Positions 47,154 to 59,185 are shown, numbered from the stretch's first letter. The stretch: 64,000 nucleotides of DNA from an uncultured Smithella sp. (GCA_964547345.1 CAZJMX010000007.1:35791-99790), one strand, 5' to 3'. Notes: a model not told the origin generated them from the sequence alone. Program-made: numbers and translations.

Positions 47154-47376
47154 GCGTTCCTCCCTACGACGAAAAATAATTTATCAGCTTAAGGATGCCC
47201 CCAATACCACCCTTTTCTCAAGCGTTTTTTTAGCGGCAGGCGGCACAGTATCCTTTCTGCCTGAAATAATTGAATTACAAAATACCCAACGGACTGGACT
47301 GCCCTGATACATCCCCAAACATTTTCGTTTGTTTTTTGGCCTATTGATGTAAAATAGCCATGTGGAGGGCTTATCA

Positions 47377-49305
47377 ATGATACGCATTAAAAGATGGCAT
47401 ATCCCCGGCGTGTTTTTCTTTATTTGCACGCTCACCGTTTATCTTCTTTCAATAGCGCAATCAGGCCTTTGCCAGACCCTTCCATCGTCCCGCATCTTCC
47501 TCAGTGCCTGGCACAATGCTGGTTGTCCTCCCATTGCGATTGAATATAGCGGACTGGCGAATGTAAAAAATTTCGGCGCCGCAGGCAACGGAATTGCCAA
47601 CGACCAGCCCGCAGTCTCCGCAGCCATCGCGTCGCTTTCCGGAATGCCCGGAGTCATTTATTTCCCTGCGGGGGCCTACCTCATTCAATCGCCAATCAGC
47701 GTTCCATCCCATGTCATCCTGCGCGGGCAAAGTTCGAAGAATACCATCCTGCGCTTTGATTTTGTGGATCATGCCATACGCATCTACGGCAGCGAAGCGG
47801 GAAGCTGGATACCCTTAACGGCTTCCGCTGCGATGCATAACAACACAATCATTGTAGAAGACGGCAGTGCCTTTTCGGTTGGGGACGATGCGATCATTCG
47901 ACAGAATAACGATCCTGCCTGGAATATCACCGATGCCTGGGCGCAGCATTCCGCAGGGCAGATTGTGAAAATTACCGGCGTTGCCGGAAACACGCTCACG
48001 CTGGAGCGGCCTTTGCGCCACGACTACCCGTTGACCCGAGCGCCTCAGATCAGGCGCATTAACGCCAATAAGCATAGCGGCGTGGAAAATATGAAGCTTG
48101 AGCGCCTCATTGCAGGAGATAATACAACCAGGAATAATCAGTACACCATCCACTTCTCCTACGCTGCGGAGGCCTGGGTCCGCGGGGTTCATAGCTACAA
48201 AGCGTTCGGCAGCCACATCGCCATGGATAACAGCACTAAAATTGATATCACCGGCAGTTATCTGGAAGATGCGCACGAATATAACGACGGCGGTTCCGGC
48301 TATGGCGTAAAGGTACAGGCCAGAAGCGGCGAGTGTTTGATTGAAAACAATATTTTCAGACGACTGCGCCACTCCATTCTCTTGCAGTCGGGCGCAAACG
48401 GCAATGTGTTTGGCTACAACTATTCGCGCGATACCCAAAGCGATTCACACCCGTCCTGGGCGGGAGACATAGCCCTGCATGGAAACTATCCTTATGCCAA
48501 CCTGTTTGAAGGAAATATTGTTGAGCACCTCTGGATAGACGACTCTCACGACGGCATCAATGGTCCCCTAAACACATTCTTCCGCAATCGGGCGGAAAAA
48601 TGCGGCTTCAACATGACGGACGCAGGCGCCAACAGCCAGAACGTGGTCGGAAACGAACTCAACCGGGGAGGATCGGCGGCCCAACTTGCCGCGGGGAATG
48701 GATATCATTTTCTGGGAACCGATCATTTTACGTATGGCAATAATACGCAGGCCGCAGGCCTTCAGCCCCCCGACACCGCCAACTTGCCGGACACGTCCTA
48801 TTATCTGATAGGTGCTCCGTCTGAAATACCGGATTGGTGGAACGTTACTGATACGCTGCCGATTATTGGCCCTGAACATAATCTCTCTCAAACAAAAAAT
48901 AACCCGGCCCGCGCCCGTTATGATCTGGAGTATAACAATAACGTCATCGGCGGAGCGGATGGAGGCGGCGGCGGATGTTTTATTGCCACGGCGGCTTTCG
49001 GATCACCTGTGGCGCGGCAGGTGCAAATCCTGAGAGATTTCCGAGACCGCTACCTGCTTCATTTCAACGCCGGCAAAGCTTTTGTGAAGTTCTATTATGC
49101 GGTCAGTCCACCTATAGCTGAGTTCATAGCCGGAAATGACAGCCTGCGCCTGCTCGCCCGCTGGATGTTAATGCCGGTGATTGGCGCTGCTTATCTGATG
49201 ATGAGTTGGGGCGCCGCGACGACCTTTATATTGATGCTATCCTTACTGCTTGCGCTTGGCGCTCTCGTCTTGATCATGCGCAGGAAAATGATCCTCTCCC
49301 GCTAA
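47377..49305 (+). CDS. Secreted right-handed beta-helix (pectate-lyase-superfamily) protein with a CFIATAA-type C-terminal anchor
   Basis: GGAGGG RBS before ATG 47377, then a signal peptide. NVKNFGAAGNGIANDQPAV, typical of Pectate_lyase_3-type N-termini. C-terminal GGGGGCFIATAAFGSP ... LRDFRDRYL followed by a hydrophobic tail. Confidence 0.75.
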   Translation: MIRIKRWHIPGVFFFICTLTVYLLSIAQSGLCQTLPSSRIFLSAWHNAGCPPIAIEYSGLANVKNFGAAGNGIANDQPAVSAAIASLSGMPGVIYFPAGAYLIQSPISVPSHVILRGQSSKNTILRFDFVDHAIRIYGSEAGSWIPLTASAAMHNNTIIVEDGSAFSVGDDAIIRQNNDPAWNITDAWAQHSAGQIVKITGVAGNTLTLERPLRHDYPLTRAPQIRRINANKHSGVENMKLERLIAGDNTTRNNQYTIHFSYAAEAWVRGVHSYKAFGSHIAMDNSTKIDITGSYLEDAHEYNDGGSGYGVKVQARSGECLIENNIFRRLRHSILLQSGANGNVFGYNYSRDTQSDSHPSWAGDIALHGNYPYANLFEGNIVEHLWIDDSHDGINGPLNTFFRNRAEKCGFNMTDAGANSQNVVGNELNRGGSAAQLAAGNGYHFLGTDHFTYGNNTQAAGLQPPDTANLPDTSYYLIGAPSEIPDWWNVTDTLPIIGPEHNLSQTKNNPARARYDLEYNNNVIGGADGGGGGCFIATAAFGSPVARQVQILRDFRDRYLLHFNAGKAFVKFYYAVSPPIAEFIAGNDSLRLLARWMLMPVIGAAYLMMSWGAATTFILMLSLLLALGALVLIMRRKMILSR

Positions 49306-49351
49306 AGGCGAGGATCAGAAGACGCTATCATTTATGGATAGGATAGATCCA

Positions 49352-50419
49352 TTAATCCTTTAGAAACATCTTGATGACAACTGCGATATCCCGTTCACCG
49401 ATATCTTCGGGTATGGCTTTTTCTTCCACTTCTCCCAGAATTTTTATTTTCGAAAGGATTTCTTTCCAATGTTTGCCTGACACCTCGGCATACAGGATTA
49501 CGCTGCGATCCAGAATCCGTCTGGATTTGATTTTTGTTTCATAGCCTGCCAGTATCTTTTCTACATCGGCAATAGCGGCGCCGAGATCATCCACCCGAAG
49601 CCATACCGAAGCCTGCAGCGGCCCCGCCGTCGATGCCGCCATGGAACGCGGCGCGGCAGGCGCGGCCATTTTATAGGATTCCTTCTTTTTTGCCATGCCC
49701 GATGACAGGCGATTCTCCGCGTTTCTCTCCTGATCCGCAAGCTCGGTTTTGGCGGATTTGGGCTCTTCGGTTCTGGCCTGAACCGCAGGATAGACTTCAT
49801 CTTTCTTTCCGGCCAACCCTTTACCCTTACTGGCATCCGTCTCTATCGCCGCCTGGGGTTTGGCCTCCGGTTCTGTCGATTTCTGAAGACTTCCGCCGGC
49901 GGCCACATCCTTCACCGGTTCTTTTGCCCGTTTAGTTTCTTCCCGCATAGCCGCTTTTTTATTCGGGGTGGCAGGTTGGGCCATATCTTTGGTTGGTGTG
50001 GGCTCCGGCAGCGGCTGTTCTTTTTGGACTTCAACTGCCGGCGGACGGGCTCCCGGCAAAAACTGTTTTACCTGTTCATCACCCGACCGATAAATATAAA
50101 CGGCCAGAACCGCAATCACAATCGTTGCCATAATCTGAATGGGGATCTTGATGCGCAAAGGATAAAACCATTTTTGCGCGAGACTTTTCTTTTCAGCCTC
50201 TTTCCTAACCTGCGCCATTATTTTTTGCTGAAACCAGGGCGGCTCTTCCACATCAGGCAAGTCAGCCACAAGCTTCCCTGCTTTTTGCAGACAAGCCATT
50301 TCTTTCCGGCAAATGATACAGCCCGCCAGATGCTCCTCAACCCGGTGCTTCTCCGCAGCGGATAAAACGCCTTCCAGATAAAGAGGCAGAAGATTTTCAA
50401 TGTCGTGACAATTTTTCAT
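49352..50419 (-). CDS. Anti-sigma factor (zf-HC2, single TM, low-complexity periplasmic linker, C-terminal globular domain)
   Basis: Hx3Cx2C in EEHLAGCIIC. TM segment IQIMATIVIAVLAVYIY. ATGA overlap with the ECF sigma gene. Confidence 0.8.
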   Translation of the reverse strand: MKNCHDIENLLPLYLEGVLSAAEKHRVEEHLAGCIICRKEMACLQKAGKLVADLPDVEEPPWFQQKIMAQVRKEAEKKSLAQKWFYPLRIKIPIQIMATIVIAVLAVYIYRSGDEQVKQFLPGARPPAVEVQKEQPLPEPTPTKDMAQPATPNKKAAMREETKRAKEPVKDVAAGGSLQKSTEPEAKPQAAIETDASKGKGLAGKKDEVYPAVQARTEEPKSAKTELADQERNAENRLSSGMAKKKESYKMAAPAAPRSMAASTAGPLQASVWLRVDDLGAAIADVEKILAGYETKIKSRRILDRSVILYAEVSGKHWKEILSKIKILGEVEEKAIPEDIGERDIAVVIKMFLKD

Positions 50420-51033
50420 AAATCACCGATCACTTTTTTCAGACAATCTTTCATCGCCAGCCTCGCGCGGGACAGCCGCGACTTCACCGTTCCGTCGGGA
50501 ATCTGCAAGACCTCCCGAATCTCTTCATAGGAACATCCCTGAATATCCCGCAGCACTAACACCTCCCGAAAGTCACCCTCCAGCGCGCCAATGCATTTCT
50601 GAACCTGCGCTTCCAGCTCACGACGTTCCAGTTGCCGGGCCGGATCACTATCATTCGATGCCGCAAAACACTGGGCGCAATCGCCCGCTCCTTCCATTGT
50701 CAAAAGCGATGCGCCTTCACGGCGCAACTCGCTTTGACGCGCCTTGAGCCGGTTTTTGGCAAAGTTGATGACAATCCGGTACAGCCATGTGGAAAACTTC
50801 GCTTCGGCCTTGAATTTGCCAATGGAGCGAAAAGCTGCCAGAAACGCTTCCTGCGTGACATCGCAGGCCTCATCATAATCCCCCAGCATCCGGCAGGCGA
50901 TGTTGAGCATCTTTTTGGAATGCCTGGCAACCAGCACGGAAAACGCTTCCGTATCACCCTTGCGGCAGGCCATGACGTATTCCAGATCGTCATCAACTGC
51001 CGGCGGTTTCTTATCCTCTAGGGTCTTAGACAT
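50416..51033 (-). CDS. ECF-type RNA polymerase sigma factor
   Basis: Region 2 (FSVLVARHSKKMLNIACRML ... DVTQEAFLAAF ... STWLYRIVIN) and region 4 (REVLVLRDIQGCSYEEIREVLQIPDGTVKSRLSRAR). The start is uncertain: 51033, 51072 or 51129. Confidence 0.85.
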   Translation of the reverse strand: MSKTLEDKKPPAVDDDLEYVMACRKGDTEAFSVLVARHSKKMLNIACRMLGDYDEACDVTQEAFLAAFRSIGKFKAEAKFSTWLYRIVINFAKNRLKARQSELRREGASLLTMEGAGDCAQCFAASNDSDPARQLERRELEAQVQKCIGALEGDFREVLVLRDIQGCSYEEIREVLQIPDGTVKSRLSRARLAMKDCLKKVIGDL

Positions 51034-51149
51034 CCACAACAACGTTTTTGTTCCCCTCAAACGTCTGTCCATAAAATTTTCATATTGCGACAGATCAGTC
51101 GTTTTTACTGATGACAGGCCCAAACTCAATACCGATCATAGGATTCCCA

Positions 51150-51179
51150 TTGACTTTTAAGACATTATTTCCATATAAT
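51150..51179 (+). promoter_or_regulatory. Near-consensus sigma-70 promoter upstream of the CHAT gene
   Basis: TTGACT (51150..51155), an 18-nt spacer, then TATAAT (51174..51179). This is about 85 nt upstream of ATG 51266. Confidence 0.45.
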
Positions 51180-51265
51180 CAAGCCCCTAAGCGGGAAATC
51201 TTATCAATACTTTACTCTAAAGATATAAGTTGAATTTCTTTTCCATATTCAAAGGAGAATTTCAG

Positions 51266-53506
51266 ATGAAAAAAGACGAAGAGTCTGCCTCAGAAAATAT
51301 GAACCTCCCTGACAAACGCAAGACAGAGCCGTTGGCCGGTTTCGATAAGCTTGCAGGTCATACATTGCCTCCCGGCATTCATACGGAATTTATCACCCTC
51401 CCCGCGATTCTTTCAGTGAGTGAGGCCCTGGCAGCTATTCGGGACCGCCGGACGAAGGCCGTGGTGATTCGTCGTTTCATAGATAACAATCCCATGTATT
51501 ATCTCTTCACCGTTTTGGAGATACAAGAAAAGCTGCGGGGCAAAGATCCGGACGAGATCATTTCTATTGCTTTGGATCTTCACGAAAGCGGCAGCATTGT
51601 GACCATCCCCTTGCAGGCGGCAGTAAAGCAGTTGCGGGACGGAACATCCAGCTTCCAGCCTACCCTCGTTATTGATAACGGCAAGGTGACAGGCTACCTC
51701 GACCCCAAACCATGTATGACAGCCGCAGAAAGTCCCTGCGAGAAACTGACTGAGAAAAGAAGCGACACATTCTTTAAAATCGATCCCTCTGCCGTTGATG
51801 CGGCCATTGATCGCATGGCCCACAAAAAGAAAAGCTCACGGCGGGGAAGTTCTATCGACAGCATCGAAGAGTCCTTCTCGCCTGCTGAAGCTTCGGGAAT
51901 GGAAAAACATGTCGTCCGCCGCAATCAGGTGTATCAGGAAACCATCCCCTCACCACCCCCGGCGGCAGCTCCGATGCCTCCTGCTTCTTCAGACACACCC
52001 TGTCATTTCGCGGCACAGATGCCCGAAGAGGTGGTCGCAGGGGAACCGGAGCAGGTGCAGATCACGCTGTCGCGCGAGGAAATCGACCTGATCATTGGCG
52101 CGTCATCTGCAAAAGGCAGCGCACCCTTGCCCGCTTTGCCTGATCAGAAGATCACCGTCCGTCTCATTCCCAAGCGGAACTTTGATGTCGTCGGCGATTC
52201 CCGCGCTGATGTGATTGTGCCACAGCCTGGCGAACCCGCCGTCACACTGTATTTCGACGTCAGGCCCGGCACGCCGGGCGATGGTGAACTATGGATCGCA
52301 TTTTGCCGGGGCCCCGTATCTCTGGTGACGCTCAAGCTCAAGCCGCAAATTGTGGCCAAACGCTCCGTCGCCGGCGCGGAATCGATTCAAGCCGAAATCC
52401 GTGCCACACCGCCTGCGGGCCTATCGGAGCGGGTAAACATCATGTTAACTTATGTTTTAGAGAACAACGGCAAAAAAAGATATAAGTACTGCCTGATGTG
52501 CGATTCCATCGATGTGGGCGGCGATTTTGAATCGCCCGAATTAAACGGCGACATCATGACGGTCCTGAAACCCTATATGGATTTATTTGATAAGGTGGAA
52601 ACCGGCGCCCAGGACGATTTTGACCAGTTGCAACTTCAGTTGCGGAGCATCGGCGCCAAACTTTTCCAGACGCTTTTTCCGAAAGAACTTCAACGTATTT
52701 TCTGGGAAAACCGGGACAAAATAACACACCTCAAGCTCTACTGCGAAGAACCCTATATTCCCTGGGAAATTCTCCATGTGTGTGAGCCGGGCAAACCCCT
52801 GCCCCCGGAAACAAAATTTCTGGGGCAAATGGGTCTGGTACGATGGCTTCACGGCCACACCGCGCCCACGCAGTTGCGTGTGCGGCCCGGACGCGCCTGG
52901 TACGTGACACCCGCCTATCGGGGCAATGAGCTGGAAAAGGCCAAACAGGAAGGCCAACTCTTGGAAACGCTGTTTGCCGCAAAACCCGTCAGCCCCGCAA
53001 CTCGGCCGGAAGTCACCAAGCTCCTGGGCGCACAAGGTCCTTTTGATCTCTTCCATTTCGCGGGACATGGTCAGGCATCTGAGGCGCAGATCTCGGAGAG
53101 CCGCATTGAACTCGAAGCCTCGGGATCCGACACCAACAAAATGCTCAGAGATTTGACGCCGGATATCGTTTCCGGCTTGTGCCAACTCAAAGCCCAAGAC
53201 GGTACGCGGCCGATTGTCGTTCTCAATTCGTGTCGGGCCGGTAAGATCGGAAGCCATCTGACAGGCCTGGGCGGTTTTGCTCCCGCGTTTCTCGAACGCG
53301 AAGCCGGTGTGTTTGTCGGCGCCCTGTGGATGATCGGTGACGAACCGGCGCTCACCTTTATCCAGGCGTTTTATGAGGCGCTTAGCGATGGTAAAATCAT
53401 GGCGGATGCGGTAAAAGCAGGACGGGAAAAAGCCCGCCTGGCGGGAGATGCAACGTATCTGGCATATGTCGTCTACGCCGATCCGTTCGCGCATCTGGTT
53501 CAATAA
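51266..53506 (+). CDS. CHAT-domain (caspase-like) protease with a possible N-terminal CBS-like pair and a central Pro-rich/beta-rich region
   Basis: AAAGGAG RBS. C-terminal His/Cys dyad context FHFAGHG ... VVLNSCRAG. The N-terminal 40-170 shows two beta-alpha-beta-beta-alpha-like units (tentative CBS). Confidence 0.8.
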   Translation: MKKDEESASENMNLPDKRKTEPLAGFDKLAGHTLPPGIHTEFITLPAILSVSEALAAIRDRRTKAVVIRRFIDNNPMYYLFTVLEIQEKLRGKDPDEIISIALDLHESGSIVTIPLQAAVKQLRDGTSSFQPTLVIDNGKVTGYLDPKPCMTAAESPCEKLTEKRSDTFFKIDPSAVDAAIDRMAHKKKSSRRGSSIDSIEESFSPAEASGMEKHVVRRNQVYQETIPSPPPAAAPMPPASSDTPCHFAAQMPEEVVAGEPEQVQITLSREEIDLIIGASSAKGSAPLPALPDQKITVRLIPKRNFDVVGDSRADVIVPQPGEPAVTLYFDVRPGTPGDGELWIAFCRGPVSLVTLKLKPQIVAKRSVAGAESIQAEIRATPPAGLSERVNIMLTYVLENNGKKRYKYCLMCDSIDVGGDFESPELNGDIMTVLKPYMDLFDKVETGAQDDFDQLQLQLRSIGAKLFQTLFPKELQRIFWENRDKITHLKLYCEEPYIPWEILHVCEPGKPLPPETKFLGQMGLVRWLHGHTAPTQLRVRPGRAWYVTPAYRGNELEKAKQEGQLLETLFAAKPVSPATRPEVTKLLGAQGPFDLFHFAGHGQASEAQISESRIELEASGSDTNKMLRDLTPDIVSGLCQLKAQDGTRPIVVLNSCRAGKIGSHLTGLGGFAPAFLEREAGVFVGALWMIGDEPALTFIQAFYEALSDGKIMADAVKAGREKARLAGDATYLAYVVYADPFAHLVQ

Positions 53507-53549
53507 GCATTCAACCGGCCCTTTTGCCAAATCAAAAAGGAGAAATGCC

Positions 53550-54899
53550 ATGCCCGACAGAAAAATCATTGATATTCACTGCCATCTATTCAACGCACAA
53601 TATGCGATTATGGAACTTGCCGCCGCCACATGGAATCATCTCTGGGGTGATTACCCTCATCAAAAAGGCGAGTTAAAAAGAAGAACGGCCCGGGGCGTCT
53701 TAGATACGCTGGAAGGCGTCAAGGATTTTGCCGCATGGATCGCCAGGCTTCTGGAAGCCATGTTGTCGGATAGCGAAGGCAATTTTGATACAGCCCGGAA
53801 AAAGTTTGCCGAAAGCGCTCTGGGTCAGGCATCAACGCTTGCCTGCGCCCCGCTGATGATGGACATCTACTTTGCCCTCGACAACAACAACGATGAAGAG
53901 GAAGCAAGTTACAAGGATCGGCGTTCAACAAAGGGGATTGAAACGTTTGTCATTCCTGAAGATCAGAAAATAAATTTTGATACGCACTTCAATGACATCA
54001 AAAATATCATCGCCGCCGAGATTCAAAAAACGTTGAAAACAAAAAGGCGGTCATCAGACCAGATGCTCAACGTCATCTTTGACGACGCCAAAAGTCAACT
54101 ACTTGCCACCTCAGGGAAAACCCGCAGAGGGAGCGATTCTTATGAAGGCATCGAACTCTCCCCGGGCTACAAGAAACACATGGAGGATTTAGAAGACCTC
54201 TGCGAAAAATATCCGGAACAAGTTTTTCCGTTCCTGGCCGTGGACCCGCGGAGAATCGGCATTCTGGAGCTCATTGACATGAAAGTCGACAAAGGCCGGG
54301 GCCTTTTCAAGGGCATCAAACTTTATCCGCCGCTGGGTTATCTGCCCACCCATCCAAATCTGGAACCTGTTTTTGAATATTGTTCCCAGTACGATATTCC
54401 GATCACCTTGCACTGTTCACCGGGCGGCCTGCAGAATTTCCGCAGCGATAATTACATGAGAAGCTTTGAGGGCGATGATCATTGGGAGGATTTCGAAGCT
54501 CTGGAAGGCAACAAGAGCCGCTACTACACAGCTCCTGAAAAATGGCTGCCTGTATTAAAAAAATGGCCCAACCTGCGCATCAACTTCGCCCATTTCGGCG
54601 GCGGAGAACAACTCGACACAGGCGATACCGTGTGGATGAACGACATATTAAAAATAATTGAGGCGCACCCAAATGTTTATACCGACGTATCCTACCACGC
54701 CAAACCGGACTTACCGGAAAAAATTGCCGACGTCATCGCTAAGCATGACATCCTGAATTCAAGACTCATGTTCGGTACGGATTTTATCATGATTATGATG
54801 GATAAAGACCTGGGCGGTCTGGACAAATACTTTGATCATTTTACTTCATTCAAGAACAATTTACTGTGCGACAATGCGAAGAGTTTCCTCAAGCTGTAA
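53550..54899 (+). CDS. Amidohydrolase_2-type metal-dependent TIM-barrel hydrolase with a large insertion
   Basis: AAAGGAG RBS. IIDIHCHLF (HxH), GIKLYP, ITLHC, NFAHFGG, NVYTDVSY and LMFGTDF. About 200 charged residues lie between the HxH and the next conserved strand. Confidence 0.75.
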   Translation: MPDRKIIDIHCHLFNAQYAIMELAAATWNHLWGDYPHQKGELKRRTARGVLDTLEGVKDFAAWIARLLEAMLSDSEGNFDTARKKFAESALGQASTLACAPLMMDIYFALDNNNDEEEASYKDRRSTKGIETFVIPEDQKINFDTHFNDIKNIIAAEIQKTLKTKRRSSDQMLNVIFDDAKSQLLATSGKTRRGSDSYEGIELSPGYKKHMEDLEDLCEKYPEQVFPFLAVDPRRIGILELIDMKVDKGRGLFKGIKLYPPLGYLPTHPNLEPVFEYCSQYDIPITLHCSPGGLQNFRSDNYMRSFEGDDHWEDFEALEGNKSRYYTAPEKWLPVLKKWPNLRINFAHFGGGEQLDTGDTVWMNDILKIIEAHPNVYTDVSYHAKPDLPEKIADVIAKHDILNSRLMFGTDFIMIMMDKDLGGLDKYFDHFTSFKNNLLCDNAKSFLKL

Positions 54900-54908
54900 G
54901 AAACATTA

Positions 54909-54997
54909 GATTGCCACGCTACCTTCGGTAGCTCGCAATGACAAAAAGATAAGCTGTTACGATCTTTAAAATACTGGATTCCCGCCTGCGCGAGAAT
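54909..54997. repeat. Two REP-like imperfect hairpins each ending in ...GCAATGAC / ...GAATGAC
   Basis: ATTGCcac-GCTACC-ttc-GGTAGC-tc-GCAAT (54909..54939) and ATTCCCGC-ctgc-GCGAGAAT (54978..54997). Both lie in a convergent intergenic region. Confidence 0.6.
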
Positions 54998-55030
54998 GAC
55001 GGCTGAATAAAAGGCACTCCCCTTAGTACC

Positions 55031-56731
55031 TTATCCCTCACCCTCTCCCAGCGCTTTCCGGTATTCATTGATCAGATGCTTTTTCGGGATGCCAATGTCG
55101 ATGATGTCCCACGGCAGGATTTCGTCCAATTCTTTTTGGCGATAGACGTAGAAATCGGCATTGATGTTTATCTCTTTTAAGGCCCGCATCCAGTTGCCAT
55201 TCAGGCGATGCACCGCCATCAGCACATCCCCCACACGCCTATCGCCCAGTGACAAAAGCGCCTGCACGTAATTCCACTTCGGCACATCGGCAATGACATG
55301 AATCTGGCGATCGAGCTTAAATGCCTGGGTAATCTTTTTGATTTTCTTCCCCACATCATTAACATCCGCAAGCGCACACCATTGCAGCGGCGTGCGGGGC
55401 TTGGGAATAAACTGGTTGATGCTCAGCGTGATGCGCCGGAATTTCTTTTTGCCTTGGGTGTGAGCAAACGCGGTATGCTGTATTTTTTTCGCCAGGTCAA
55501 TGATGGCGTCGATGTCTTCATCACCTTCTGTCGGCAGCCCTACCATGAAATAAAGACGCAGATGGGAAATATCTTTTTCGATTAAAAGACGCGCGGCGCC
55601 AAGGATATCCTCCGAGGTAATCCCCTTTCGCAGCAGATCGCGTAGCCGCTGGCTTCCCGCCTCCGGCGCGAGGGCAACGGTCTCAATGCCGCCCGCCTTG
55701 AGAATATCAACCACGTCTTCCTGAATCTGATCCATGCGTAAAGAGCCGATGCCTGCTTCAGCGCCCTGATCTACGATGTATCGGCAAATGCGGACGAGAT
55801 CGGGATGATCGGAAACCGCCGTGCCGACCAGGCCGATTTTGTTCTTTAACTTCAAACCGCTGTCGATCGCTGTAACGATGTCTTCATAGCTTCGGAAGCG
55901 CGGCGGCGCGTAAACATAGCCTGCCGCGCAAAAACGGCACAGATGCGGACAGCCGCGGTTGACTTCCACCAGATACATATCCGCCATTTCCGTATCCGGA
56001 GAGATGACCACATCGGTTGTGCAAAATGCATTGATGTTTTTTATCGAGGGTATTTTGATGCAACCCGGCAGGTTGTCTTCCTCAGGCACAATAGCTTTTA
56101 TTTTTCCATCAGGGAAATAAGAAACGGCATAGAGGGAAGGGACGTAAAGTCCGGGGACGTTTTTCTGCAGATAAAGCAGAAGCGCCTTTCGGTCAAAATC
56201 GAGCTTGCGGGCCCGGTCAAAAGCGCCGGCAAACACAGGCATGACCTCTTCGGCTTCACCTAAAATAAAGACGTCAAAAAAATCGGCCAACGGCTCGGGG
56301 TTAAGCGACAGCGCGATGCCGCCGCCGACCACCAGCGGATGATTTTCGGCGCGGTCTTTGGCAGCAAGCGGTATGCCGCCGGAGGCAAGCATTTGTAAAA
56401 CGGCGGGGTAGTCATTTTCAAAAGAAAGAGAAAAAGCCAGAATGTCAAAATCGCCGAGGGGTTTGAGATTTTCGAGGCTGACGATTTCCGCCGCGCCGGT
56501 GACGGATTCGGCGCCGTCACCGGTCACGGACAGAAACGCTCTTTCACAAAGAAAGAAGGGGAGCTCGTTAATCATTTTATAAACAGTCTGGAACCCCAGG
56601 TTGGCCATGCCGATCCGGTACGCATTGGGATAGGCCAGGCAAACCGTATGACAGGTCCCCCAGACGTTCTTGATGAAACCCTGCTCGCGAGCCAGCAGGG
56701 TTTCATATATTTTCTTTTGTTTCCAGTTCAT
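55031..56731 (-). CDS. Radical SAM protein with an N-terminal B12-binding-like domain (uncharacterised family)
   Basis: GCPHLCRFCAAG cluster motif. ATG 56731 was preferred to the longer ORF. Confidence 0.8.
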   Translation of the reverse strand: MNWKQKKIYETLLAREQGFIKNVWGTCHTVCLAYPNAYRIGMANLGFQTVYKMINELPFFLCERAFLSVTGDGAESVTGAAEIVSLENLKPLGDFDILAFSLSFENDYPAVLQMLASGGIPLAAKDRAENHPLVVGGGIALSLNPEPLADFFDVFILGEAEEVMPVFAGAFDRARKLDFDRKALLLYLQKNVPGLYVPSLYAVSYFPDGKIKAIVPEEDNLPGCIKIPSIKNINAFCTTDVVISPDTEMADMYLVEVNRGCPHLCRFCAAGYVYAPPRFRSYEDIVTAIDSGLKLKNKIGLVGTAVSDHPDLVRICRYIVDQGAEAGIGSLRMDQIQEDVVDILKAGGIETVALAPEAGSQRLRDLLRKGITSEDILGAARLLIEKDISHLRLYFMVGLPTEGDEDIDAIIDLAKKIQHTAFAHTQGKKKFRRITLSINQFIPKPRTPLQWCALADVNDVGKKIKKITQAFKLDRQIHVIADVPKWNYVQALLSLGDRRVGDVLMAVHRLNGNWMRALKEININADFYVYRQKELDEILPWDIIDIGIPKKHLINEYRKALGEGEG

Positions 56732-56788
56732 GGAAATCAAATGGCCTCCGCCTATCCAAGCCTGGCCGGCAAGCCACAAACCTTTTCT

Positions 56789-57946
56789 TTAGTCCGCCTG
56801 ACGGCGCAAAAACGTGGGGATATCGATATCGACGTTTTCGCTTTCGTCATTGATGCCCATCGTCATCACATTGGCCTGATCACGCGTTTTTTCCTTACGC
56901 ATGAACGTCGGCGTCGCCAGATTTTCTTTCCGGAATCCGCCCAGATGGGCCACATTGGACGACGCCTGTTTCTTTTTCATCACGTCTTCAAAACCGGTGG
57001 CGATGACCGTGATGCGGATTTCATCGCCCATCTTCTCATCAATCACCGTCCCGAAAATAATATTGGCGTCTTCGTGCGCTTCCGCCTGAATCAGCGATGA
57101 CGCCTCATTAACTTCATACAGACTTAAATCCGCGCCGCCGGTGATGTTGAGCAGAATGCCGTGCGCGCCCTGAATGGTGTTGTCTTCCAGAAGCGGCGAG
57201 GAAATCGCCCTTTGTGCCGCCTCTACCGCGCGGTTTTCACCGATGGCCGTGCCGGTGCCCATCAGCGCCATGCCCATGTTGCTCATAATGTTCTTCACAT
57301 CGGCAAAATCCAAATTGATCAGTCCGGGAACCACAATCAGATCCGAGATGCCTTTGACGGCCTGATACAAAATATCGTCCGCTTTTTTGAAAGCATCCAA
57401 TAGCGAAAGACCGCGTCCGCCCAGACTTAACAGCCGCTGGTTGGGAACAACAATCAGGGTATCCACCACGTCGCGAAGCTGGATTACGCCTTCTTCGGCC
57501 TGGACGTTTCTTTTCTTGCCTTCAAACTGAAACGGCTTGGTCACGACGGCCACCGTGAGCGCGCCGCACTCGCGCGCCATCTGTGCAATGACCGGCGCCG
57601 CGCCCGTGCCCGTGCCGCCGCCGAGACCCGCGGTGATGAAAATCATGTCCGCGCCTTCAAGGTGACGGCGAATTTCATCGCGGGATTCCAGCGCCGCCTG
57701 CTTGCCTACGTCCGGAATGGAGCCTGCGCCCAAGCCTTTGGTCACTTCCGCGCCAAGCTGAATCTTGACGCCCGCGGCAGACGCCCCCAGCGCCTGGGCG
57801 TCCGTGTTGGCGATCATGAAATCAACGCCCCGCAGGGTGTAGGAAATCATGGTGTTCACGGCATTGCCGCCGCCGCCCCCTACGCCGATCACTTTAATCT
57901 TTGCCGAATTTTCAAAACATACTTCCGTTAACTCAAACATGCGCAC
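56789..57946 (-). CDS. ftsZ: Cell division GTPase FtsZ
   Basis: Tubulin signature [13 protein letters not shown], and NTDAQAL. Confidence 0.97.
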
Positions 57947-57958
57947 CCCCTTCTTTGT

Positions 57959-59185
57959 TTAGAAAAATTCCAGAAACCACTTTTTAATCGCTTTGAGCCC
58001 ATTGCCGAATACATTGCCCGTCTTGCGATAGACGGAATCTCCCGATGCATTTTTACTGCCGTAAATAATCAAACCCACTCCCACTGCAAACGCAGGCGAA
58101 TTGGCCACGTCTGTCAGGCCGCCGACCCCGGTGGGATAACCACGACGCACCGGCATATCGAAGATCTGTTCCGCCATTTCATTGATGCCCGGCAAAAGCG
58201 ACGCGCCGCCGGTCAATACCAGTCCCGCGGCCAGCAGATCTTCATAACCGGAGCGGACAATTTCCTTGAGCGCCATGTTCAGGATTTCTTCCATGCGCGG
58301 CTCCATGATCCGGCCGAGAATCTGGCGTGACACCGTCCGGTCTTCGCGGCCGCCGACGCTGGGCACTTCGATGGTCTCTTCCTTCGGAATCATCGACGTC
58401 AGCGCACAGCCGTATTTCAGCTTGATTTTTTCCGCTTCGGCAAAAGGCGTCCGCAACCCTGTGGCGATATCCGACGTCAGGAAGTTGCCGCCCACCGACA
58501 GGATGGCCGTATGCTTGATGCTGCCTTCTGCGAAGATCGCAATGCTGGTGGTCGATCCGCCGATGTCGATGAGCGCTATCCCCAGATCTTTTTCGTCGGA
58601 CCCGAGAACAGCTTCGCTTGCCGCCAGTTGCTCGAGAACAACGTCATCAATGTCCAGGCCGACGCGATTAACGGATTTGACAACATTCTGAATGGACGCG
58701 GCCGCGCCCGTGACAATATGGACTTTGGCCTCCAGACGCACCCCCGACATGCCCACCGGATCGCGAATGCCGTCCTGACCATCCACTACGTAATTTTGCG
58801 GCAGTGTATGCAGGATTTCACGATCCGCGGGAATCGCGATGGCCTTAGACGCCTCAATCGCCCGCTGCAGGTCGTCCTCGCCGACTTCGCGGCCTTTGAT
58901 GGCGACAATCCCCAGGGAGTTTTGTCCCTTGATGTGGCCGCCTGCAATGCCGACATACGCGGAATTGATGCGGCATCCGGACATGTGCTCGGCATCCTCC
59001 ACGGCCTTTTTAATCGCTTCGACGGTGCTCTCGATATTCACCACGCCGCCTTTGCGCATCTCCTTGGCCGGCACGATTCCCACGCCGATGATGTCGATGC
59101 CGGTGTCCGTCACTTCGCCGACCACCGCCGCCGTTTTCGTCGTGCCGATATCAATGCCCACCAGAACGTTGCTTTTTCTCCTCAT
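57959..59185 (-). CDS. ftsA: Cell division protein FtsA
   Basis: Actin-like ATPase with VGIDIGTTK and IDIGGSTT. Positioned between ftsQ and ftsZ. Confidence 0.95.
   Translation of the reverse strand: MRRKSNVLVGIDIGTTKTAAVVGEVTDTGIDIIGVGIVPAKEMRKGGVVNIESTVEAIKKAVEDAEHMSGCRINSAYVGIAGGHIKGQNSLGIVAIKGREVGEDDLQRAIEASKAIAIPADREILHTLPQNYVVDGQDGIRDPVGMSGVRLEAKVHIVTGAAASIQNVVKSVNRVGLDIDDVVLEQLAASEAVLGSDEKDLGIALIDIGGSTTSIAIFAEGSIKHTAILSVGGNFLTSDIATGLRTPFAEAEKIKLKYGCALTSMIPKEETIEVPSVGGREDRTVSRQILGRIMEPRMEEILNMALKEIVRSGYEDLLAAGLVLTGGASLLPGINEMAEQIFDMPVRRGYPTGVGGLTDVANSPAFAVGVGLIIYGSKNASGDSVYRKTGNVFGNGLKAIKKWFLEFF

Follow-up and report, generated by a model that had tools for sequence, protein, structure and literature searches.

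Does a caspase-like protease gene that lies directly ahead of a hydrolase gene form a functional unit with it, and if so, of what kind? This question is raised by a locus from an uncultured Smithella sp., analysed here as one stretch of DNA of 64,000 nt (the window). Four genes lie in the region from 49,352 to 54,899. A CHAT protease (P0001) and an amidohydrolase (P0002) are encoded on the + strand, and a sigma factor of the extracytoplasmic function (ECF) type and an anti-sigma factor are encoded divergently on the - strand. An original prediction, made from this sequence, had proposed that protease and amidohydrolase belong together and had set their conserved pairing as a check. The pairing was readily observed. 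In 11 of 11 loci with DNA downstream of a short-form protease gene (domain order TCAD7-DUF7363-CHAT), the next gene encoded a member of the same amidohydrolase family.

The CHAT-amidohydrolase gene pair

The paired loci comprise the window, L001/L002, L003/L004, L005, L012, L019 and the metagenome loci L120-L124. A short-form protease gene lacking an amidohydrolase gene directly 3' of it was not found among these 11 loci. Identity of the CHAT proteins across the set drops to 40% (L124, in which two frames overlap), and the two genes co-occur far beyond close relatives. In several paired loci they abut or overlap. The flanking genes differ: L001-L004 carry GntR, a DHDPS-like gene and a HAMP-GAF kinase, and L005 carries Sel1 and a radical SAM gene next to ftsZ. 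In one metagenome locus (L121:3-2101) the CHAT gene falls into two frames that overlap (3-641 and 521-2101), owing either to a frameshift or to faulty assembly.

In the window, the module spans 3.6 kb and consists of two co-oriented genes with a 43-nt gap, in which no + strand terminator was found. The protease gene (51266..53506, +; 746 aa) starts at an ATG backed by a ribosome-binding site, the open reading frame (ORF) as listed being 51230..53506. The amidohydrolase gene (53550..54899, +) encodes 449 aa, and an AGGAG ribosome-binding site precedes both genes alike. A sigma-70-type promoter, TTGACT-18-TATAAT (51150..51179, +), agrees with the consensus at 11 of 12 positions and would serve the two-gene operon. 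It is the top of 7 promoter-like sites in 6 kb, where shuffled sequence gives 4.6 +/- 2.1. The near-consensus promoter, the two strong ribosome-binding sites and the 43-nt spacing of the original prediction were thus all found, and the CHAT and amidohydrolase genes are predicted to form one operon.

P0001 ends in a CHAT (clan CD, caspase-like) domain at residues 554-721 (52925..53428, +; Pfam PF12770, E = 5e-16), with a score of 59.4 bits against a cut-off of 24 and profile positions 101-264 of 289 covered. The CHAT dyad, His601 (FHFAGHG, 53066-53068, +) and Cys656 (VVLNSCRAG, 53231-53233, +), is nearly invariant across 16 homologues, in agreement with the intact His/Cys context noted before. 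Orthologues of P0001, full-length or partial, number 16; identities are 48-69%, and the source is metagenome-assembled genomes of Desulfobacterota. P0001 is present as a single copy in its genome. No signal peptide and no membrane segment were found in it, and the protein is predicted to be cytoplasmic. The AlphaFold model, obtained from a shallow alignment, was poor (predicted local distance difference test, pLDDT, 51.5). Its best Foldseek match was the CHAT-bearing anti-sigma factor DdvA (8rot, 1e-5), and Csx29, the TPR-CHAT protein of Craspase, was also retrieved (7zoq, 3.8e-5), both matches lying in a CHAT region with a pLDDT mostly below 60. What had been described as a central Pro-rich, beta-rich region turned out to be a disordered hypervariable linker of about 100 residues (147-246; 51704..52003, +), recognised by a pLDDT of 23-31 and by alignment of homologues, followed by DUF7363 (residues 250-358; 52013..52339, +; Pfam E = 8e-20), for which Foldseek matched Ig/macroglobulin-like beta-sandwiches.

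The N-terminus had been taken for a CBS-like pair. By sequence, this part is filed as TCAD7, covering about residues 39-146 (51380..51703, +; Pfam match 39-123, E = 2e-13). Pfam CBS gave no match in P0001 at E <= 0.01, the only families reported being TCAD7, DUF7363 and CHAT, and a profile match to the CBS region of IMPDH was weak (E = 0.12). The fold was more informative. The TCAD7 part of the model has a pLDDT of about 80-85 and a beta-alpha-beta-beta-alpha ... beta-alpha-beta-beta order of elements (DSSP strands E42-46, E65-72, E75-82, E112-115, E133-137 and E140-145; helices H51-58, H83-89 and H116-124), so that two tandem beta-alpha-beta-beta-alpha units lie in one domain. Foldseek matched it to the CBS-pair proteins 3i8n, 3oco, 2p9m, 2yzi and 7cfh and to the CBS region of GMP reductase, with E from 3e-4 to 7e-3 and a TM-score on the target of 0.4-0.5. 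As modelled, TCAD7 is CBS-like in fold, which bears out the proposed pair at this level; by sequence it is no member of the CBS family. CBS pairs commonly bind adenosine-containing ligands, and TCAD7 is presumed to be a regulatory or ligand-binding module. A literature search for TCAD7 (ternary complex associated domain) by name found nothing.

A profile search with the TCAD7 region returned 61 representatives among 1.8 billion proteins. Ten were scanned; all carried TCAD7, seven carried CHAT and six of those seven DUF7363, which makes TCAD7 a fixed part of one CHAT subfamily. The alternative of a free-ranging sensor fused to many effectors was rejected on the same count (CHAT in 7/10). Two of the ten had an N-terminal DUF7379 alpha/beta-hydrolase, preceded in one by DUF7362. 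In this long form (P0018, P0164, P0191) the TCAD7-DUF7363-CHAT cassette is fused to DUF7362-DUF7379. A 1163-aa long form with the order DUF7362-DUF7379-DUF7363-CHAT was seen in Saccharothrix stipae (L136:8001-14062). Two proteins without a Pfam match come after it, one of 480 aa that contains a P-loop-like GPRGVGKS motif and one of 380 aa. Both were considered as amidohydrolase kin and rejected (hhalign probability <1%).

The second gene had been assigned to the amidohydrolase_2 type, and P0002 indeed matched Pfam Amidohydro_2 (PF04909, E = 3.5e-20; 73.4 bits against a cut-off of 26.4), residues 214-448 alone being aligned. Its model is of high confidence (pLDDT 90.5; predicted TM-score, pTM, 0.92) and forms a TIM barrel into which additional helices, about 200 residues in all, are inserted between strands 1-2 and 2-3. 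Four stretches are of lower confidence (about 40-50, 121-136, 162-169 and 190-204). Foldseek gave 69 PDB matches at E <= 1e-3, and the fold is that of a (beta/alpha)8 barrel. The best 50 of these 69 are amidohydrolase-type TIM-barrel enzymes, including the related AibH/SfbO/TruffO oxygenases. Across 73 family sequences D8, H10, H12, H288 and D411 show no variation, and H348 is kept in at least 90%. Because the residues of the HxH...H...H...D ligand pattern are conserved in this way, the metal site of P0002 is considered intact; the ligands were assigned by analogy to strand 1 (HxH), strands 5 and 6 (His) and strand 8 (Asp). Likewise, four of the five residues of a PLMMD strand motif are invariant and M104 is nearly so. 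The nearest structures are LigW, CAC3332, LigJ, IDCase and ACMSD (E about 1e-6). P0002 shares the TIM-barrel fold and the metal-ligand pattern with the Amidohydro_2 enzymes LigW, LigJ, IDCase and ACMSD, but differs from them in its low identity (12-18%), TM-scores of 0.35-0.53, the helical additions and the invariant PLMMD motif. By sequence the best PDB match had E = 2e-4 and no close solved relative was found. P0002 is a remote, uncharacterised branch of the amidohydrolase superfamily.

Peptidase partners of the amidohydrolase family

The amidohydrolase family was next viewed from its own side. It gave 604 matches. In GTDB species genomes 125 loci were counted, and 80 species-representative ones were fetched from these; members occur in at least 7 phyla. 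Genes in the fetched loci were called with a simple greedy ORF caller, and peptidases were sought with local profiles for CHAT, C14, C1, C11, trypsin and DUF7379 only. A CHAT, C14, C1, C11 or trypsin peptidase was adjacent or fused to the amidohydrolase in at least 26 of 80 loci, a lower bound because of this caller and these six profiles. A CHAT gene lay upstream in 13 loci, three of them of the TCAD7 type. Since CHAT proteins are rare genes, this adjacency is far beyond chance, as judged by their rarity rather than by a computed background. Four of the 13 are Clostridia, in which a C14 caspase, a 382-aa CHAT protein and the amidohydrolase follow each other, and six belong to Bacteroidota, where the CHAT protein is giant and in four cases contains DUF7379. 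In the Bacteroidota loci L060, L071, L080, L083 and L085 the amidohydrolase comes after a giant lipase-CHAT protein. A C14 caspase accompanied the amidohydrolase in two more of the 80 loci. Papain-like C1 peptidases were found in 10/80 loci, either as the second gene upstream, at a distance of up to about 4.5 kb, or as a fusion; a clostripain-like C11 peptidase was additionally found in one locus and a trypsin-like protease in one. Single polypeptides join the amidohydrolase to C1 (L046, L049), C14 to the amidohydrolase (L078) and DUF7379 to the amidohydrolase (L074, L079, L088, L089). The family hence shows adjacency with alternative protease classes in the sense of Evans et al. (2025), by these counts and by its fusions.

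Several of these arrangements were seen in more than one genome. The Clostridial operon is exemplified by Youngiibacter multivorans (L006:5068-15359; 263-aa C14 caspase, 382-aa CHAT protein, amidohydrolase), and the same order was found in L023, L025, L033 and L035. In L006 it continues with at least 7 co-directional genes, mostly without a Pfam match and including those for a 523-aa protein and a DUF4332/PASTA protein, and may be part of a larger system. In Rikenellaceae/Bacteroidales (L048, L050, L055, L062, L075) a 299-aa C1 peptidase and a protein of ~574 aa without a family precede the amidohydrolase. An uncultured delta-proteobacterium (L010:5575-10312) encodes C1, C11, an amidohydrolase 68% identical to P0002 and a prokaryotic YEATS-domain protein, all co-directional.

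In a tree of the amidohydrolases (quick maximum-likelihood search, support by the Shimodaira-Hasegawa-like approximate likelihood ratio test, SH-aLRT, only), peptidase-linked loci were spread over several well-supported clades. P0002 fell in a Desulfobacterota clade that is sister to the Clostridial C14+CHAT clade. At some family loci conflict-type neighbours were present (TIR, Csx3, NERD, PemK, pYEATS, FRG, TPR-S), and the PADLOC caspase, subtilase and nacht models matched neighbours at some loci. Enrichment in defence islands, as considered originally, is thus seen in part: conflict-type genes stand beside some family members, but the window locus itself lies at the end of the division and cell wall (dcw) cluster. 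In all 80 loci together, four downstream neighbours matched PemK/MazF.

Of 151 sampled genomes of the order, 4 yielded the amidohydrolase and 1 a TCAD7-CHAT orthologue; therefore, both genes are sporadic accessory genes. In Chlorobiaceae (L026-L044) ~13 amidohydrolase genes have no peptidase nearby and are often followed by small genes (~124 aa).

A possible protease-gated switch and its alternatives

A precedent for a hydrolase that is controlled by a caspase-like protease is LcHydrolase, a zymogen that is cut twice at R|G by its protease, causing cell death (Evans et al. 2025, PMC12642450). Arg positions of P0002 with Gly directly after them in >=30% of the amidohydrolase clade were R48 (27/43) and R193 (23/43) only. 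The Arg-Gly columns of the alignment therefore yield two candidate cleavage loops, R48-G49 (site 1) and R193-G194 (site 2), both in parts of the model that are of lower confidence (residues 41-50, mean pLDDT 55; residues 191-200, mean 72). Site 1 is kept in 8/8 aligned CHAT-paired members, including the divergent L124, and site 2 in 6/8; the L011 locus, which carries a remnant of the protease gene, keeps both. In a long-term solo subclade of amidohydrolases (L015-L018) Arg-Gly is present in 1/4 at site 1 and 0/4 at site 2. The linker of P0001 also holds an Arg-Gly, R193-G194 in KKKSSRRGSS, which is the only positionally conserved one in the protein. It is found in 9/16 family members, and several of the remainder have no such region.

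By analogy with known systems, we consider it plausible, with a chance slightly short of even, that protease and partner enzyme make up a self-contained module and belong to the conflict systems of "protease-effector" type, acting as a protease-gated cell-death or immunity switch. The pair is tied to this class because TCAD7-DUF7363-CHAT also occurs fused to DUF7379, because DUF7379 in turn is fused to members of the amidohydrolase family, and because of the two Arg-Gly loops. Beyond a conserved two-gene unit with intact active sites, we infer the following course. The cytoplasmic CHAT protease would be kept inactive at rest. A regulatory input would reach it through the CBS-pair-like TCAD7, and possibly also through the linker with its conserved Arg-Gly, by binding of a small ligand or by auto-processing. 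Activated CHAT would then cleave its partner behind an Arg in each of two exposed loops, R48|G49 and R193|G194 being the candidates. Cleavage would switch on a TIM-barrel metal hydrolase that is latent until then, and this enzyme may damage an essential cytoplasmic substrate, leading to growth stop or death, for example during phage infection. The pair is small, its catalytic residues are clear and it offers two candidate sites, so the hypothesis is directly testable in E. coli and in vitro.

The closest parallel is LcCaspase/LcHydrolase (PMC12642450). Both are caspase-superfamily proteases with a dedicated neighbouring hydrolase. The cassette of the window also occurs fused to a DUF7379 alpha/beta-hydrolase, a domain that is fused to the amidohydrolase family as well, and the Arg-Gly in flexible loops of P0002 parallels the two R|G sites of LcHydrolase. 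Here, however, the partner is an amidohydrolase TIM barrel, pairing is not obligate and the system is known from sequence alone. This pairing, to which the long form with DUF7362-DUF7379 also corresponds, had been predicted by Kaur et al. (2020, PMC7159879), who noted that in conflict systems an alpha/beta-hydrolase always accompanies peptidases of the caspase superfamily. Gasdermin and metallo-beta-lactamase (MBL)-nuclease modules likewise place one effector family beside caspase-like/CHAT, trypsin-like and subtilisin-like proteases, and share the proposed logic of a latent effector freed by cleavage. The amidohydrolase differs from these effectors in fold and chemistry, and the protease of the window has neither a STAND nor another large sensor fused to it. 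Moreover, those effectors are almost always protease-linked (for MBL, exceptions are 15 of 2,689), whereas more than half of the amidohydrolase family is not.

Among catalogued systems, PADLOC has no model for the amidohydrolase, and P0001 gave weak CHAT-domain matches to BovA (1.6e-4) and SAVED_CHAT (2.7e-3). BovA is the CHAT protein of Borvo, a single-gene anti-phage system in PADLOC. A CHAT domain is common to both, and six CHAT partners of the amidohydrolase family also match BovA, but the match of P0001 is 18.8 bits over residues 593-724 only, and Borvo has no TCAD7, DUF7363 or amidohydrolase. The MoxR-vWA "ternary" conflict systems, from which the Pfam name TCAD7 derives, differ by companion genes that are absent at the module: no MoxR AAA+ ATPase, vWA or VMAP/iSTAND was found in eight ORFs of the window (47362-59185) nor in the called genes of L001-L005. 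Full-text literature searches, most subscription journals being outside their scope, found no paper that describes this pair or connects an amidohydrolase with CHAT or caspase-like proteases in a defence context. Within these searches, the statement that no system of this composition had been described holds for the pair itself; it does not hold for the class of linked protease-effector modules, which is known. What sets the module apart is an amidohydrolase partner for which no description was found and a compact CBS-like input domain.

Several observations weigh against a switch in which CHAT releases a latent effector. No peptidase was detected near more than half of the amidohydrolase loci, and nearly constant linkage of the effector to a protease is not seen in this family. 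Among the solo loci are an entire Chlorobiaceae clade and relatives of P0002 with 60-65% identity (L009, L013, L014, L021, L015-L018), and solo amidohydrolases keep all catalytic residues. A TCAD7-type CHAT gene was not found elsewhere in three genomes with a solo amidohydrolase. Because the solos stay intact and these three genomes have no such CHAT, the amidohydrolase probably has a function that needs no protease. In L011, an intact amidohydrolase gene stands directly downstream of a CHAT gene with a clean in-frame internal deletion, which, as read from the sequence, looks like a snapshot of protease loss. About residues 275-705 are gone from this remnant (L011:7400-8000); TCAD7 is joined to the last ~40 residues, so that the remnant has neither DUF7363 nor CHAT. 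The protease seems to need the amidohydrolase, which can persist alone. The relation of Arg-Gly to pairing is partial, as the old solo subclade lost the motifs and recent solos keep them, and the correlation comes from few, related sequences. Plasmid and phage records contained no homologue, and no defence island surrounds the window locus, which sits between a housekeeping sigma operon and the dcw end.

Part of this evidence would also fit an amidohydrolase that is a co-acting enzyme or regulator rather than a substrate, making or destroying the ligand of TCAD7, or neutralising a toxic protease in the manner of an antitoxin. CHAT is never without the amidohydrolase and the amidohydrolase is often without CHAT; the protease decays first in L011, as when a toxin is lost before its antidote; the solo enzymes remain catalytically intact; and a CBS-like fold would suit an adenosine-containing ligand. 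We nevertheless hold this to be unlikely. The family pairs or fuses with at least 5 unrelated peptidase families lacking TCAD7, which a TCAD7-specific ligand hardly explains, its nearest structures are aromatic or uracil carboxylate decarboxylases and hydratases rather than nucleotide-processing enzymes, and Arg-Gly is conserved in flexible loops of the CHAT-paired members. The pair could instead serve ordinary physiology, for example stress-induced protein processing together with a catabolic or detoxifying hydrolase in anaerobes. Its chromosomal site at the dcw end beside a housekeeping-type ECF sigma gene, the radical SAM-ftsZ flank shared with L005, the lack of a PADLOC system match, the plasmid and phage records without copies and the many stand-alone amidohydrolases among metabolic genes (e.g. 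L009) all agree with such a role. Yet the pair is very sporadic within the order while the family crosses phyla, peptidase partners were repeatedly swapped and fused, the CHAT cassette is related to conflict-system architectures and conflict-type neighbours occur at several loci. We thus regard a purely physiological module as quite improbable.

The remaining alternative concerns the divergent genes, an ECF sigma gene (50416..51129, -) and a zf-HC2/DUF2275 anti-sigma gene (49352..50419, -), both identified by sequence family match as the pair that had been described. The anti-sigma factor had been suggested as a proteolytic target, in which case CHAT would cut it and so control the ECF sigma factor, as in Craspase-Csx30-RpoE, CalpL-CalpT-CalpS or DdvA-DdvS. 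Published defence circuits of protease, anti-sigma and ECF sigma factor (PMC10028731, PMC11506125), the divergent adjacency in the window and the top Foldseek match of the CHAT model to DdvA speak for it. The comparative data are against it. Anti-sigma orthologues were present in 59/151 sampled genomes of the order (25/62 genera), and the sigma/anti-sigma pair resembles a conserved stress regulator of the housekeeping kind. Of the 30 anti-sigma loci that matched best (fetched with about 4 kb each), only those from the window's own genus (G000, G140, G150) have the module beside them. Because the pair is widespread without the module and the adjacency occurs in one genus, we consider it lineage-specific synteny. 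In L013 (whose "Smithellaceae bacterium" is G140), L014 and L021, sigma and anti-sigma orthologues are divergent from the amidohydrolase with no CHAT between them; in the same-genus L013 and L014 a TTGACT box stands at the equivalent position, directly ahead of the amidohydrolase. CHAT-amidohydrolase pairs outside the genus (L001-L005) have other neighbours and no sigma pair. The promoter of the module is sigma-70-like, not ECF-like. Finally, as read from the sequence, the long disordered part of the anti-sigma factor lies beyond its membrane helix, outside the cytoplasm, whereas CHAT is cytoplasmic. A CHAT domain and a nearby ECF sigma factor are shared with type III-E Craspase (Cas7-11, Csx29, Csx30, RpoE) and with DdvA/DdvS, but the module has no TPR or cas genes in the eight ORFs scanned, its sigma pair is not co-conserved, and its CHAT protein is cytoplasmic and no part of an anti-sigma factor, unlike DdvA. 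Proteolysis of the anti-sigma factor is accordingly highly improbable, and the sigma/anti-sigma genes are judged to be bystanders that are no part of the module.

Returning to the reading in which CHAT frees a latent hydrolase, a bolder form of it extends to the whole family. It is conceivable, although we rate it as doubtful, that the PLMMD amidohydrolases are an unrecognised protease-licensed death effector, which bacteria from at least 7 phyla would have recruited to proteases of the CHAT, caspase, papain, clostripain and trypsin types, and that the window holds a minimal immune switch in which the CBS-like domain senses an infection-related small molecule and CHAT cuts R48|G49 and R193|G194. 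Ten protease-associated effector families have been listed, and the amidohydrolase is not among them (Evans et al. 2025, PMC12642450). If true, the amidohydrolases would bring the number of families to eleven, alongside MBL, alpha/beta-hydrolase, Pepco, EACC1, gasdermin and others. Effectors gated by a protease have lately been put forward as a dominant principle of immunity in bacteria, with the animal parallels caspase-gasdermin and caspase-CAD. To these the module would add an enzymatically different effector, a TIM-barrel metal hydrolase, and a compact sensor-protease, the input domain of which is similar to CBS pairs that bind nucleotides. An effector family that also lives without a protease would further bear on how such effectors are recruited.

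Surroundings of the module

The sigma ORF as listed starts at TTG 51129, and relatives suggest a shorter N-terminus. On the 3' side of the module, a B12-binding radical SAM gene, ftsZ and ftsA, which form the end of the dcw cluster, are convergent to it. The radical SAM gene (55031-56779, -) is TIGR03960-like and lies directly after ftsZ. The same position is kept in L005 (L005:4514-6205), which suggests that this gene is stably linked to the dcw cluster end.

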